Source: an uncultured archaeon (GTDB taxonomy: Archaea > Nanobdellota > Nanobdellia > Pacearchaeales > GW2011-AR1). Taken from it: DNA of 64,000 bases. Position 1 is the stretch's first letter. Each line of letters begins with the position of its first letter. The stretch covers positions 39,589 to 103,588 of the forward strand of contig CABMGE010000010.1 in NCBI GenBank assembly GCA_902385625.1, given 5' to 3'. The notes under the pieces were generated by a model. It made no database searches. It was not told where the DNA came from and was given only the letters and a program-made list of their open reading frames with translations. Positions 7,341-20,895 of the stretch are shown one piece after another. The translations under genes and the position numbers were made by a program.

Positions 7341-8123
7341 TTATTTCTTTGTTAAAACATGCAGAGGTTTATTAGAAATTCTTACTTCAAGATTATCTCC
7401 ATTATTAAAACCATAAGCTTTATTTGAGTCTATTGCAACAATTCCGCCACCATATTTTTTACCTTCAAAAAATATTGATTCTCCTGGAAGTATTTCCCCA
7501 CTTAAAAGAGTTGGTTGATATAAATTTCCAAAATAAGGTTCTCTTACTAAAAATGCAAGTTTTCCTTTTTCATGATTAAATGGCTTTCCTCCTGCAGATC
7601 TATACCAGGCACTGCTTCCTCCTGCAGTTGCAACTAAAACTCCAGAACTTCTTTGTTCTTCTTCATTTCCCCTGTATTTAAGAACATAACGTGATGTTGC
7701 AAATTGCACTTCAGTACCTATATAGATTTCATTAATTGCTCTTTCTTTTATTACATGACCATTTTTTATTGCAACTGCTCTTTCTTTGTCAAGAACATTA
7801 TAATTCCCAAGTAAGATTTCGCTTAAAGAATCAATTTCATCATCTTTTAGGCTTGTTAGTGCTCCTTCACTATATTCAGGTTCTGAATTAATTCCAAGCA
7901 AAGGAACATCTTCAATATAATGTGCTGTTCTAATAACTGTTCCATCTCCTCCTGCAGTTATTACTAAGTCTCTATCTGCAAAATGCTTGAATTCCAGATC
8001 CCTGACATTGATTAATTTATTTTTTATTCCTACTTTACTAATTAATCCTTTTATGCTTTCTACAGCAGAAATATGCTGCTCTGTAAGTTTTTCGCTATAA
8101 ACCAATAGTATATTTTTAAACAT
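7341..8123 (-). CDS. nadK: NAD kinase
   Basis: GGDGT motif (ITAGGDGTVIR), NE motif, ATAGGSSAWYRSAGG. Confidence 0.85.
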   Translation of the reverse strand: MFKNILLVYSEKLTEQHISAVESIKGLISKVGIKNKLINVRDLEFKHFADRDLVITAGGDGTVIRTAHYIEDVPLLGINSEPEYSEGALTSLKDDEIDSLSEILLGNYNVLDKERAVAIKNGHVIKERAINEIYIGTEVQFATSRYVLKYRGNEEEQRSSGVLVATAGGSSAWYRSAGGKPFNHEKGKLAFLVREPYFGNLYQPTLLSGEILPGESIFFEGKKYGGGIVAIDSNKAYGFNNGDNLEVRISNKPLHVLTKK

Positions 8124-8124
8124 T

Positions 8125-9768
8125 TTAACTTCCTATATTTAATTTTTGCACCAAAGTAAGATTTAAATATTTATTGTTTTCCTTTGGAAAATCTTCCCTG
8201 AAATGACAGGCCCTGCTTTCTTCTCTTAACAAGGCACTTTCAATTATTACATGGGCAACTTCAACTATATTTCTTACCTCTAAAAAATCCTTTGTTACTT
8301 TGTAACTCCAATAATATTCTTTTATACTTTTTTCAAGAGACTTAATTATATCAAGTGCAGCAACTAATCTTTCTTTACTTCTTGACATTCCACAAAGGGC
8401 GTTCATTGTTCTTCTGACTACTTCCCAATAATATCCAACAGTTATTTTATCTCTGGATTCTTTCGCACTTCCTGTTCTCCAAAGAGGAATTTTTATTGAT
8501 TCTGGACTTTTTGTTTGTGATAAGAAATGCTTTGCTGCAAGCTCTGCAAATAAAATACATTCAGGACCTGAATTACTTGCAAGCCGAGTTGCGCCATGCA
8601 GCCCTGTGTAAGATGTTTCTCCAAGAACATAGCATCCGTTTATTTCAGTTTCACTATTTTTTCCAACTAAAACTCCTCCATTAGAGTAGTGTTCTGCATA
8701 AACAACAGGAACAGGCTCTTTTGTTATATCATATCCGTGCTTTTTACAAAATTCATAAGAGTTTTTAAAATCATTTTTTAATCTTTCTTTATCTATTTTT
8801 GTGCAGTCAAGCCAAACATGTGAAAGTCCATTTTTTCTCATCTCAATATCCTCTGCCCTTGAGACTACATCTCTTGTTGCTTTTGATCCCATTGGATCAT
8901 ATTTTAAAACAAAGTCCTCACTTGAGTTCATTGAAAGTTTGAGAATTGCTCCTGCTCCTCTTAATGCTTCTGTTAGTAAAAATCTTCTTTCAGTTTCATT
9001 TGTTGCAGAGGGATCATAAAAAACAGTAGGATGAAACTGAATAAATTCCATATTTGCAAGTGGGAGTCCTCTTCTATAACACATTGCAAAGCCATCTCCT
9101 GTTGCAACATCAGGATTTGAAGTATAAAGGAATGTTTTTCCAAGACCTCCTGTTGCAACAAAGGTTGCTTCACACTCCACAGTTTTTACATAATCATTTG
9201 TTATATCATAAACATAAAATCCAAAGCAGATATCATTTCCTGATTTTTTTTCTTGTAATTTATCTTTTGTTATAAGATCAATTACCATATGATTTTCATA
9301 TATAGTTATATTTGGATGATTAATAATTAGGTTTCTCAAAGTTTCCATAATTGTCTTTCCTGTTGTGTCTTTTATATGAAAAATCCTATTTTTCGAGTGC
9401 CCTCCTTCCCTATGAAGATCAAATTCTCCATCCTGCAAATCAAATTTTATTCCTCTTTTAATTAACCATTCAATTACATCTGAATAAAAATGTTCTGCAC
9501 AGTATTTTACAATTTTCTCATCATTAAGACCTTTTCCAGCTGCCAAGGTCTCTTTTACATGAAGATCAAAAGAATCATTTGTGAAGTTTGGAATTTTAAC
9601 TGCTGTAAGTCCTCCTGCAAGAAGATAACTACTGCAGTCTTCAGTTAATTTATTTTTTATAAAGAGTGCAACCTTTTTCCCTGCATCTGCAAGTTCAAGC
9701 GCAACTGCTGCTCCTGCAAGCCCTGCTCCGATTACTCCGCAATCTGCTTTTATTAAATCATTTGGCAT
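8125..9768 (-). CDS. nadB: L-aspartate oxidase (FAD flavoprotein)
   Basis: GVIGAGLAGAA dinucleotide fold, HREGGHS, LTEALRGAGAIL, RLASNS. Track ORF reaches 9789; the ATG at 9768 sits just after the nadR stop. Confidence 0.85.
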   Translation of the reverse strand: MPNDLIKADCGVIGAGLAGAAVALELADAGKKVALFIKNKLTEDCSSYLLAGGLTAVKIPNFTNDSFDLHVKETLAAGKGLNDEKIVKYCAEHFYSDVIEWLIKRGIKFDLQDGEFDLHREGGHSKNRIFHIKDTTGKTIMETLRNLIINHPNITIYENHMVIDLITKDKLQEKKSGNDICFGFYVYDITNDYVKTVECEATFVATGGLGKTFLYTSNPDVATGDGFAMCYRRGLPLANMEFIQFHPTVFYDPSATNETERRFLLTEALRGAGAILKLSMNSSEDFVLKYDPMGSKATRDVVSRAEDIEMRKNGLSHVWLDCTKIDKERLKNDFKNSYEFCKKHGYDITKEPVPVVYAEHYSNGGVLVGKNSETEINGCYVLGETSYTGLHGATRLASNSGPECILFAELAAKHFLSQTKSPESIKIPLWRTGSAKESRDKITVGYYWEVVRRTMNALCGMSRSKERLVAALDIIKSLEKSIKEYYWSYKVTKDFLEVRNIVEVAHVIIESALLREESRACHFREDFPKENNKYLNLTLVQKLNIGS

Positions 9769-9769
9769 C

Positions 9770-10801
9770 TTATTCCTTGGTCTTTTCAAAAAGCTTGTTT
9801 ACCAAAGATCTTGCGCTATCAAATCTTTCTTTATAATTTCCAGAAATTGTTACAAAATCAATTCCTCTATCTTTATACATTTGTTTTAGAATTTCATTGT
9901 TTTTCATTCTTACTTCTTTTTCACCTTTATTTCTAAGTCCATCAGGAACCCATTTTACATCAGGTTCAAGATATATAACAAGATCATATTTTTGTTTTTT
10001 AGCTATTTCATCGATCAAATTTGATCTTTCACCATTAAAATACATATCAAGATAATACTGAGTTATTACTGCTTCGCTATCTACAAACAAAACCTTATTA
10101 CTAGTTTCTGCTTTTTTATCTTGTAAAAGAAAATGCTCCATTGCAATCTTATCAAACATTTCTACTGTCAATTGATTCTTATATTTATCACAATAATCTC
10201 TTCCTACTTCTTGTACAAACTCAGTATTATAGAATTTTGCAAGTTTTTTTGTAAGAGTTGATTTTCCGCAACTTTCTGTTCCAACAATTGCAACTCTCTT
10301 TGTAAAATATGATCTTACAGTGTTTGGCAGTTTATCCCAGTTATCATAAAGATTTATTCTTAAATCGGTTGCAGATGTAGTGACTGTTTTTCTTTTATCG
10401 TCGATTACAATATGTTTTGAATTTGGATAATATTTCTTAAAAATTTCATCATAAGAGTGTTCTGAACTAAAAACAAAATCAATCGGTTTTCCAATAGCTT
10501 TTTTAATCATTTCTGCACCTTTTTCCCAGTTATAATCTTTATCCCACTGATCATCTTCAATATGAATTATTTTTACATTTTCAAGATTATTTAGAGATTC
10601 TCCAATCCAAGAGAGCCTTACATCTGCCGGAATATATTTTATCCCATCTCTTTCGCATAATTCGCGATCCCGATTTTTTGATGAAGATACAATCACATAT
10701 AGTTCATCCACCTGATTTGATGCATCCATTATTGTATAAATATGGCCTTGATGAAATGGTAGATATTTCCCACCAATAAATCCTACTGTTTTATTTTCCA
10801 T
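9770..10801 (-). CDS. nadR: NadR-type bifunctional NMN adenylyltransferase / ribosylnicotinamide kinase (no N-terminal HTH)
   Basis: GGKYLPFHQGH nucleotidyltransferase motif; P-loop GTESCGKST. Track ORF reaches 10849; ATG at 10801 preferred. Confidence 0.85.
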   Translation of the reverse strand: MENKTVGFIGGKYLPFHQGHIYTIMDASNQVDELYVIVSSSKNRDRELCERDGIKYIPADVRLSWIGESLNNLENVKIIHIEDDQWDKDYNWEKGAEMIKKAIGKPIDFVFSSEHSYDEIFKKYYPNSKHIVIDDKRKTVTTSATDLRINLYDNWDKLPNTVRSYFTKRVAIVGTESCGKSTLTKKLAKFYNTEFVQEVGRDYCDKYKNQLTVEMFDKIAMEHFLLQDKKAETSNKVLFVDSEAVITQYYLDMYFNGERSNLIDEIAKKQKYDLVIYLEPDVKWVPDGLRNKGEKEVRMKNNEILKQMYKDRGIDFVTISGNYKERFDSARSLVNKLFEKTKE

Positions 10802-20167: not shown

Positions 20168-20419
20168 TTAATTCCACTCTCCGTTTCTGAGTGCCTGATA
20201 GATTTGATTTGAATTCTGATATCCCATTGCTTCTTTTACCCATGGAACTACCATTCTTCTTGCATCTGTACTTGCAGCGATTGGACAAGGTACTGGATAT
20301 GCTTCTCTAAATGCAACATAAGGATGATTTGCTCCTCTTCTTATTGTTACATTATTGAGCCTTTCCAAGGCTTTTATTACATTTTTTAGTTTGAGTCCAT
20401 CTCGTGTTTTTTGTGCCAT
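20168..20419 (-). CDS. small protein, family B copy 2 (possible HicA/YcfA-like fold; retains His in GANHPY)
   Basis: MAQKTRDGLKLKNVIKALERL...GEWN; ATG at 20419 follows the upstream stop at 20421. Confidence 0.55.
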   Translation of the reverse strand: MAQKTRDGLKLKNVIKALERLNNVTIRRGANHPYVAFREAYPVPCPIAASTDARRMVVPWVKEAMGYQNSNQIYQALRNGEWN

Positions 20420-20420
20420 A

Positions 20421-20708
20421 CTAGTTCCAGCCTCCCTCTTGCAAAGCAAGGTATATTGTATCAGAGTCCTTGTATCCACTTACATTTTTAACCCAAGGAA
20501 CCACTTCCTCTCTTGCATTAGTATACTTTGATAATATACAAGGTTCTGGAAATGCGGGTGTTTTAGCAATATAGTCTACATAAGGATCATTAGTTTTGAT
20601 TCTAACAAAAAGCAATCTTTCTAATGCTTTTGCTACATTTTTAAGATTTAAACCATCGAGTGTCTTTTGTTCAAGCCTATCCCTAACTCTTATTGGAACT
20701 CTATTCAT
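20421..20708 (-). CDS. small protein, family B copy 1
   Basis: LDGLNLKNVAKALERLLFVRIKTNDPY...VVPWVKNVSGY...GGWN. Confidence 0.55.
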   Translation of the reverse strand: MNRVPIRVRDRLEQKTLDGLNLKNVAKALERLLFVRIKTNDPYVDYIAKTPAFPEPCILSKYTNAREEVVPWVKNVSGYKDSDTIYLALQEGGWN

Positions 20709-20709
20709 T

Positions 20710-20895
20710 TTATACTAAACCTCCATATTCAATTACTAGGTTGTTAAGTGAAACATAAATTGTAAATCCTGAGAAGTTCTTTTCAAAGTATCCATTTACT
20801 TCTCTTTCTAGTTCGCAGAGTTTTCCAAAATCTTCTGCGCCAAGTCTTAAAACTTGCTCCTCAAGTTGCATTTGTTTTGCCATTTTATTCTCCAT
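20710..20895 (-). CDS. small protein, family A copy 1 (first ORF of the NAD operon)
   Basis: 61 aa; alternative ATG at 20883 is preceded by GGAG. Confidence 0.5.
   Translation of the reverse strand: MENKMAKQMQLEEQVLRLGAEDFGKLCELEREVNGYFEKNFSGFTIYVSLNNLVIEYGGLV

Follow-up and report, generated by a model that had tools for sequence, protein, structure and literature searches.

The minus-strand genes at positions 7341–20895 of this stretch raise the question of how an archaeon comes to hold so many genes of nicotinamide adenine dinucleotide (NAD) and ADP-ribose metabolism side by side: whether they form one operon, what controls them, and whether they were recently acquired or inherited. DPANN archaea are believed to rely on their hosts for a wide range of metabolites, and how they acquire cofactors and regulate that acquisition is poorly documented. 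The DNA analysed here is a 64-kb window (hereafter "the window") out of a 120-kb contig, and related loci retrieved for comparison are numbered L001–L043. A first-pass annotation had read the region as an acquired NAD-replenishment island of about 20 genes in a reduced archaeal genome. Our own reading, to which we assign a probability of roughly 0.75, takes these genes as the principal transcription unit in an NrtR-repressed regulon for NAD salvage and ADP-ribose recycling, with 18 genes behind one promoter, inherited within the lineage of its Woesearchaeota-type DPANN host.

Packing and enzyme content of the putative NAD operon

Nineteen open reading frames (ORFs) follow one another without a break on the minus strand between 20895 and 7341. 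With the best-supported start codons, taken from the ORF listing and from inspection of the starts, the 18 junctions measure, in order, 1, 1, 2, −1, 1, 1, −4, −4, 24, 4, 1, 4, 1, 1, −4, −11, 1 and 1 nt. Seventeen of them are 4 nt or less, the sole larger one being a 24-nt pseudo-junction created by a TAA codon within an NMNAT-like gene, and the median is 1 nt as against approximately 100 nt between neighboring genes of like orientation in the window's right half. The range of −11 to +24 nt reported earlier was recovered on recomputation, and all of the junctions then quoted are present, namely TAATG at 19902, the stop/ATG pairs at 18402/18400, 13757/13752, 9770/9768 and 8125/8123, and the 4-nt overlaps at 17666–17669, 17094–17097 and 11516–11519. 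Since the minus-strand gene run goes on to 33341, beyond the NAD operon, the co-directionality of the NAD genes is unremarkable by itself; it is the packing, and not the shared direction, that is the real operon signal. A Shine-Dalgarno (SD) motif of the GGAG/GAGG type lies within 20 nt of the start in approximately 12 of the 18 downstream ORFs, with a weak AGGA alone in two more, and the first ORF (20710–20895) has no SD motif and is preceded by a 191-nt intergenic region with an A-rich leader. The tightly packed cluster of the first-pass annotation stands, and its count of about 20 genes becomes 18, since ORFs 16645–17097 and 16354–16620 form one frame split by the TAA.

Gene families were called from Pfam and NCBIfam profiles against their curated cut-offs. 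PncB, PnuC, NadR and the NAD-synthase domain of a two-domain, glutamine-type NadE score above these cut-offs, and NadK, a NadB-like protein, an ADP-ribosylglycohydrolase, an IU-nucleoside hydrolase, two isochorismatase/PncA-like proteins and two archaeal-type NMNAT-like proteins are assigned at the family level. Earlier calls of these same families, made from motifs and including a Nudix hydrolase, agree with the profiles, weakly in the case of the Nudix hydrolase.

Reading down the minus strand, on which all of these genes lie, the first enzyme is PncB, a nicotinate phosphoribosyltransferase (NAPRTase) of type I (18402–19640), which matches NF003704 at 402 bits (cut-off 379) and TIGR01514 at 316 bits (cut-off 270) as well as the Pfam NAPRTase and NAPRTase_N domains. 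Two isochorismatase-family paralogues follow. IsoB (17666–18400; Pfam isochorismatase family) is a PncA-like nicotinamidase with its catalytic Cys and Zn ligands kept, and in alignment with P. horikoshii PncA (1ILW) the D-x-H, HC and ATDYC motifs are conserved. IsoA (17094–17669) carries a Ser at the position of the catalytic Cys of PncA, shows no recognisable Zn-ligand motif, and probably has an activity other than that of PncA, or none. Of the two PncA-like genes annotated previously, IsoB holds up as such, with catalytic Cys and metal ligands present, and IsoA does not.

The next gene is NMNAT-like, with 247 codons (16354–17097), and is broken by an in-frame TAA at 16645–16647 into ORFs of 150 aa and 88 aa that share one frame. 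Four metagenomic relatives (L038–L041; 55–81% identity) have an uninterrupted ORF with Ser at the TAA codon, a change from TCA to TAA takes one base, and the TTG "start" of the 88-aa ORF has no SD motif. Because the ORF of the relatives continues through a Ser at this point, the TAA in the window appears to be either genuine, as a nonsense mutation that makes a pseudogene or as a variant of this strain, or else an error in the sequence. The previous call of two NMNAT-like genes was right as to family, one of them together with the following 88-aa ORF being a single interrupted gene.

Downstream lie the glutamine-dependent NAD synthetase NadE (14349–16349; CN-hydrolase and NAD-synthase domains), a divergent Nudix hydrolase (13757–14347; Pfam NUDIX 20.9 bits, slightly below cut-off) and NMNAT1, an archaeal-type (NadM-like) nicotinamide/nicotinate mononucleotide adenylyltransferase (13153–13752; NF002243 104 bits and TIGR01527 84 bits, both under cut-off). 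The Nudix box of the second of these is degenerate (KEGLEE, by eye), and the protein is a candidate ADP-ribose or NAD(H) pyrophosphatase. The order NadE-Nudix-NMNAT is kept in many relatives, in which orthologues of NMNAT1 with 40–49% identity adjoin the Nudix gene. An IU-type nucleoside hydrolase (12360–13151; Pfam IU_nuc_hydro 99 bits), 64% identical to its L038 orthologue, and a DraG-like ADP-ribosylglycohydrolase (11516–12358; Pfam ADP_ribosyl_GH 122 bits), with orthologues in L010 and L038, come next.

The operon then continues with the nicotinamide riboside transporter PnuC (10791–11519; TIGR01528 146 bits, cut-off 42), a NadR-type nicotinamide mononucleotide (NMN) adenylyltransferase/ribosylnicotinamide kinase (9770–10801; NF005988 230 bits, cut-off 201, over profile positions 62–409) and a NadB-like FAD flavoprotein resembling L-aspartate oxidase (8125–9768; TIGR00551 436 bits, cut-off 453) that is also clustered in L004 and L014. 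NadR has NMNAT and kinase domains and no enterobacterial helix-turn-helix (HTH) domain; its identity is 71–76% in relatives and 44–46% to Bacillus phage NadR. No member of the NadA or NadC families was found among the scanned window ORFs. The last gene encodes the NAD kinase NadK (7341–8123; Pfam NAD_kinase 32 bits, cut-off 25.5), in which GGDGT and NE motifs can be read. Its stop and that of a convergent 582-aa gene of no known function (5591–7339, plus strand) are 1 nt apart (7339–7341), and therefore a terminator has no room there. A scan for bacterial sigma-70 promoters and terminators was uninformative (82 matches against 79 expected), and the window yielded no tRNA and no Rfam family, NAD riboswitches included.

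The NrtR homologue and its putative operators

NrtR had been named among the bacterial families of the island, and a homologue of this Nudix-related transcriptional regulator is indeed present, albeit outside the operon, at 1403–2068 on the minus strand. It has an N-terminal Nudix domain (Pfam NUDIX, 81 bits) and a C-terminal NrtR winged-helix DNA-binding domain (NrtR_WHD, 72 bits), and its best matches in the PDB are two structures of the NrtR family, AraR (5BS6, 1.6e-46) and Shewanella NrtR (3GZ5, 7e-40). The Nudix signature GX5EX7REUXEEXGU is intact, and the protein may still hydrolyse ADP-ribose. A class-I methyltransferase gene (2058–2978, minus strand) overlaps nrtR by 11 nt and is putatively co-transcribed with it and, through this overlap, probably translationally coupled to it. 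The two genes are neighbours in L007 and lie within one cluster in L014, with 62% identity each.

For most bacterial NrtR groups, Rodionov et al. (PMC2330246) reported a palindromic motif of 21 bp built around GT-N7-AC. The operator consensus obtained here, TTAGTGTA-N5-TACACTAA, is a 21-bp palindrome with this same core. Allowing at most one mismatch, GTGTA-N5-TACAC occurs at six sites in the 64-kb window as compared with 0.56 expected, a number reached in none of 100 shuffles, and all six sites fall within three promoter regions (20955–21033, 2985–2999 and 32424–32482). An independent position weight matrix (PWM), built solely from sites in other loci and genomes, ranks the same six sites first with 18.1–20.9 bits, the next best site scoring 14.5.

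In the promoter of the NAD operon, pattern and PWM both mark the minus-strand operators O1 (GTGTAAAATATACAT on the gene strand, 21019–21033), O2 (GTGTAGAATATACAA, 20977–20991) and O3 (GTGTAATAAGTACAC, 20955–20969), the last of which is a perfect match to GTGTA-N5-TACAC. A candidate TATA box (TTTATAAA, 20992–20999) abuts O2, and transcription would be expected to begin on the far side of that operator. Repressors of archaeal promoters classically act from such a site, downstream of the TATA box and ahead of the start point. The methyltransferase-nrtR operon is preceded by an operator at 2985–2999 (minus strand), 7 nt from the ATG and with the TATA sequence TTTATATA ahead of it, that has the highest PWM score in the window (20.9 bits). 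At the third promoter two minus-strand operators (32424–32438 and 32468–32482), again found by pattern and PWM and with a TATA box abutting the proximal one, stand upstream of gene 31374–32345.

The direct abutment of a TATA box (TTTATAAA, TTTATATA or TTTAAATA) on one operator is a conserved promoter architecture, present in all three window promoters and in L004, L008, L020, L024, L029, L038 and L043. Several promoters have a second operator approximately 42 nt upstream, and sometimes a third one 7 nt downstream; a distal O1-like site about 42 nt upstream of the TATA-proximal site is also found in L020, L024 and L029. Of the 45 sites found in related loci of Woesearchaeota, approximately 35 are located 2–170 nt upstream of genes for type-I/II NAPRTase, PncA, NMNAT, NadA-like, NadV-like or sX proteins (sX being a small protein from the head of the operon) or of nrtR, and no operator site was found in the bacterial NadE loci compared.

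A single operator and TATA region was found for the operon, at 20955–21033. The genes could nonetheless be a co-directional cluster and not one operon, with internal promoters driving sub-modules and the operator governing only the first. Candidate sub-modules are sX-PncB-PncA, NadE-Nudix-NMNAT and PnuC-NadR-NadB-NadK, the orders of which differ in relatives and which there sometimes have an operator each (in L008, operators precede NAPRTase-II, NMNAT and sX-PnuC), and the starts of PnuC and NadR have no SD motif. However, no intergenic gap in the operon exceeds 4 nt save for the TAA pseudo-junction, no further operator lies inside it (the best internal PWM score is 7.6 bits), and the overlapping stop and start codons suggest translational coupling. 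We consider a set of separately driven sub-modules unlikely and favor a single transcription unit of 18 genes.

It is also conceivable that the palindrome is real and bound by another factor, the NrtR homologue being an ADP-ribose pyrophosphatase only or regulating, e.g., sugar genes in the manner of AraR. The best PDB match of the homologue is an arabinose regulator, its intact Nudix box is potentially catalytic, and the genes at the third promoter have no obvious NAD link. On the other side, the window and the loci L001, L002, L011, L012, L014 and L018 all have the operator directly ahead of nrtR or its operon, which fits autoregulation; the palindrome has the core and the length of the NrtR family, and it is absent from loci without NrtR-type neighborhoods. 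Binding by a different factor seems to us quite improbable, and NrtR is retained as the putative repressor.

Several points weigh against an NrtR-repressed regulon with a single main operon and should be considered together. The solved structure nearest to the homologue is that of the arabinose-responsive AraR and not of an NAD-type NrtR, its score of 185 against the NCBIfam NrtR equivalog is below the cut-off of 400, and NrtR binding and the response to ADP-ribose are extrapolated from bacterial homologues. A lone PWM match of approximately 18–19 bits can be chance (1 of 20 shuffles), and it is the clustering of operators and their conservation across genomes, not single PWM matches, that carries the weight here. 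Promoters internal to the coding sequence may also act within the operon. On the metabolic side, five small proteins at the operon head are unexplained by the proposed NAD pathway, no NadA or NadC accompanies the NadB-like protein in the window, NMNAT1 carries HNGN where HxGH is expected (by eye), and the activities of the Nudix hydrolase, IsoA, the nucleoside hydrolase and NMNAT1 are predicted ones.

Origin of the cluster and extent of the proposed regulon

The window contains archaeal housekeeping genes (DTD2, TrmB, pyruvoyl arginine decarboxylase, aminoacyl-tRNA synthetases and IMP dehydrogenase), and the closest NadE loci among species-representative genomes come almost entirely from metagenome-assembled genomes (MAGs) of Woesearchaeota, Nanoarchaeota or Pacearchaeota at 51–61% identity, with bacterial NadE appearing only at 46% or less. 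Of the description "reduced archaeal genome", the second word is borne out by these genes and NadE relatives, and the first is plausible.

Same-strand NAD clusters of 13–17 kb are present in L004, L007, L008, L014 and L038, and NAD genes are clustered in L020 as well, so that the synteny comparison suggested in the first-pass annotation finds these genes together in relatives and not dispersed. The order in L004 is sX-PncB-PncA...NadE...NadK...PnuC-NadR-NadB, the clusters of L007, L008 and L014 being similar, and that in L038 is NAPRT-II-PncA-...-NMNAT-NadE-Nudix-NH-ARH-NadK-NadD...NrtR (NH, nucleoside hydrolase; ARH, ADP-ribosylglycohydrolase). The NAD modules are shuffled from genome to genome, and the clusters of relatives include duplicated NadK and alternative NAPRTases. 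Because relatives carry equally large and redundant same-strand clusters, the concentration of NAD genes, previously called atypical, is typical of the lineage.

The tetranucleotide Jensen-Shannon (JS) divergence of 7341–20895 from the rest of the window is 0.0037, where all equal-sized segments range from 0.0019 to 0.0043, and GC is flat along the window with the NAD operon included; the k-mer comparison reveals no deviation. These values bear on the idea of a recently acquired NAD-replenishment island, possibly one directed against NAD-depleting immunity. NadR, PnuC and NrtR are bacterial-type families, as had been pointed out, and type-I PncB and the two-domain NadE can be added to them; moreover, the next-closest NadE retrieved after those of Woesearchaeota is bacterial, NadR shares its 44–46% identity with NadR-like genes of Bacillus phages, and the gene content of phage NARP3 is exactly PnuC plus NadR (PMC13464706). 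A recent island is nevertheless at odds with a composition equal to that of its surroundings, with the lack of integrase and transposase genes among the scanned ORFs and of tRNA in the window, with flanks of a housekeeping kind (aldehyde dehydrogenase, unknown proteins and a PfkB kinase), and with the many Woesearchaeota MAGs that hold orthologues of 55–76% identity in comparable clusters bearing the same operator. IMG/VR holds no close relatives, and control by a metabolite-sensing repressor fits homeostasis. No positive evidence was found for the earlier link to strategies that counter NAD depletion, although the embedded PnuC-NadR pair does equal the NARP3 gene content.

Recent acquisition is in our judgment very unlikely. 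Because relatives are clustered alike, composition matches, no tRNA was found and no mobility gene appeared among the scanned ORFs, we take the cluster to be an inherited, modular trait of the lineage made of bacterial-type parts, and these parts point to an old transfer, not a recent one. An origin in a giant phage or virus can be set aside given the lack of any megablast phage match, the cellular housekeeping context and the lack of IMG/VR relatives. As a separate observation, a candidate tRNA-3'-end-like sequence (GGTTCGAATCCCGG...) lies directly upstream of the NAD promoter in L020, at approximately 1590–1620.

The head of the operon consists of five ORFs (19642–20895) with no known family in Pfam or NCBIfam, all on the minus strand. 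The first, s61 (61 aa, 20710–20895), is like the N-terminal half of the sX family and has a 57-aa homologue at the same position in L043. It is followed by sP3 (95 aa, 20421–20708), sP2 (83 aa, 20168–20419; homologue in L043), sX (87 aa, 19902–20165) and sP1 (86 aa, 19642–19902), with sP1, sP2 and sP3 being paralogues that are 51–62% identical, sP3 standing at 51% to the other two. In several relatives sX, which belongs to a DPANN-specific family, is the first gene after the operator. Single-sequence searches with sX and sP returned one relative each, and a profile search was required for more: it places sX with about 30 clusters of DPANN "hypothetical proteins", and among 1.84 billion proteins the sP family counts just 45 representatives. 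Neither the AlphaFold2 (AF2) model of sX (mean confidence, pLDDT, of 71; best match an R3H/S8-like fold, E = 0.06) nor that of sP1 (pLDDT 79) has a significant fold match in the PDB. A guess from sequence pattern that sP is a HicA-like toxin was abandoned, HicA appearing only at E of about 2 with no Pfam, NCBIfam or PADLOC match. The head as a whole looks like a tandem duplication of an sX-like plus sP unit, and in the close relative L043 (Logan SRR22388163; 296–1276) four of these small genes stand behind the same promoter, with a type-II NAPRTase next in line where the window has type-I PncB.

The third promoter leads into three further minus-strand genes, which encode U323 (31374–32345), its paralogue U331 (30206–31201) and a short pyruvate-kinase-like protein (29124–30116) with its active-site motifs kept and its C domain missing. 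These are probable additional members of the regulon. Homologues of U323 and of the pyruvate-kinase-like protein are found inside the NAD clusters of 8–9 other Woesearchaeota loci, and in two of those an operator-bearing Ser/Thr-kinase-like gene precedes them. Because the operator-bearing genes of the third promoter have homologues in the NAD clusters of relatives, the functional unit exceeds 7341–20895. Neither the operators nor this wider regulon figured in the first-pass annotation. U323 and U331 have no match in Pfam, PADLOC or the PDB. The motifs D-x-T-G-S-M, EGGGG..ESYE and GDE-FY are invariant in U323 and U331; the first of them suggested by eye a von Willebrand factor A (vWA) protein, an assignment that gained no support from Pfam (to E 5), PADLOC or a PDB-sequence profile search.

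In related MAGs the operator also occurs before NadA-like, NadV/NAMPT-like and Ser/Thr-protein-kinase-like genes, as judged by eye from N-terminal motifs (L012, 10121–11196; L006, 6788–8316; L018, 4864–5714; L015, 5337–6229), the gene in L012 being the NadA-like one. This suggests that the regulon has been extended in particular lineages by such NadA-like, NadV-like and kinase-like genes.

Immediately upstream of the NAD operon, 21087–29112 forms another tightly packed minus-strand operon, which encodes a QueC-like PP-loop protein, three unknowns, a weakly matching AAA+ (AAA_5) ATPase of 622 aa, a PfkB sugar/nucleoside kinase and a 730-aa protein with a Gly/Ser/Asp-rich linker. None of these genes has a homologue in related loci save for the PfkB gene, which is just upstream of the NAD promoter in L038 too. 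A defence system was considered for this block and rejected, PADLOC giving only a generic QueC match. Cumulative GC skew has its minimum at approximately 32000–34000, where gene orientation and the sign of the skew both switch; this may reflect simple coding-strand bias or a replication-related boundary.

It is tempting to suppose that the conserved, unannotated members of the regulon (sX, sP, U323/U331 and the pyruvate-kinase-like protein without its C domain) stand for as yet undescribed activities or regulators in the homeostasis of NAD and ADP-ribose. We put this forward tentatively, and with the odds somewhat against it. If it were true, the regulon would be how host-dependent DPANN archaea detect that NAD is being consumed and draw pyridine precursors from their hosts.

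Proposed cycle and comparison with known systems

The gene families, the operon-like packing, the domains of the regulator and the enriched, conserved promoter palindromes form the groundwork for a proposed cycle, in which substrates and fluxes are drawn from what is known of each family. Nicotinamide riboside would be imported by PnuC and converted by NadR to NMN and then to NAD. Nicotinamide would be deamidated by the Cys-containing PncA (IsoB), and the resulting nicotinate turned by PncB into nicotinate mononucleotide (NaMN), which the archaeal-type NMNAT would adenylate and the glutamine-dependent NadE amidate to NAD; NADP would then be made by NadK. On the recycling side, ADP-ribose would be released by the DraG-like glycohydrolase and split by the Nudix hydrolase into AMP and ribose-5-phosphate, and the nucleoside hydrolase would return riboside to base and ribose (possibly nicotinamide riboside to nicotinamide).

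By analogy with bacterial NrtR, from which the regulatory part of the model is inferred, the NrtR protein encoded 5 kb downstream in its own operator-bearing operon would bind the 21-bp palindromes TTAGTGTA-N5-TACACTAA. We propose that this binding blocks initiation, because the operators lie over or beside the TATA box and the start of transcription. ADP-ribose would serve as the signal of NAD consumption, freeing NrtR and de-repressing the regulon. The locus offers in this way a testable picture of three salvage routes and ADP-ribose recycling under one putative metabolite-sensing repressor, and what appears to be a case in which a transcription factor of bacterial type acts at an archaeal promoter through an operator fused to the TATA box. 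The operator is also a handle for locating more members of the regulon, and already indicates three unannotated protein families.

Each part of this scheme has known counterparts. From the de novo NadB-NadA-NadC pathway only the NadB-like protein is present (436 bits against the cut-off of 453), the other two being missing from the scanned ORFs. The Preiss-Handler route (PncA-PncB-NadD-NadE) is represented by a PncA that has the catalytic triad region, type-I PncB and glutamine-dependent NadE all present and adjacent. In contrast to that route there is no NadD in the window, and adenylylation would fall to the archaeal NadM-like NMNAT, with a predicted activity on NaMN; the relative L038 does have a NadD-like gene. 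The bifunctional NadM-Nudix enzymes of Synechocystis and Francisella (PDB 2QJO/2QJT) similarly pair an archaeal-type NMNAT with an ADP-ribose-type Nudix domain, and NMNAT1 draws NCBIfam matches to this bifunctional family, but here each is encoded by a gene of its own, Nudix ahead of NMNAT, and the box of the Nudix protein is degenerate. PnuC-NadR salvage of the Haemophilus/Lactococcus type, and phage NARP3, share with the window an adjacent PnuC-like transporter and bifunctional NadR, here with an 11-nt overlap, and the absence of an HTH domain agrees with non-enterobacterial NadR. Unlike in NARP3, the pair is found in a chromosomal, putatively repressor-controlled operon of a cellular genome with no viral context.

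Our literature search found no paper on NAD salvage clusters or NrtR in DPANN. The 2008 survey of NrtR listed bacteria only (PMC2330246), a 2019 survey also screened archaeal RefSeq genomes, and a 2023 paper on Sulfolobus Nudix proteins still calls NrtR bacterial.

The closest comparison is with the bacterial NrtR regulons, the targets of which include pncA-pncB, nadE, nadM, pnuC-nadR and draG (Table 1, PMC2330246). A regulator that joins Nudix and winged-helix domains, a 21-bp operator with the GT-N7-AC core, the target families and the predicted autoregulation are all common to those regulons and to the one described here. The differences are that the host is archaeal and the operator is fused to an archaeal TATA box instead of a sigma-70 promoter, and that the bacterial examples have 2–5 genes, whereas here an 18-gene operon joins three salvage routes with NadK, NadB and ADP-ribose enzymes. 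Extra members of no known family, sX, sP and U323, are a further difference. Relative to them, an archaeal host and promoter, the gathering of all routes in one putative 18-gene unit, and the predicted unannotated members are what sets this regulon apart.

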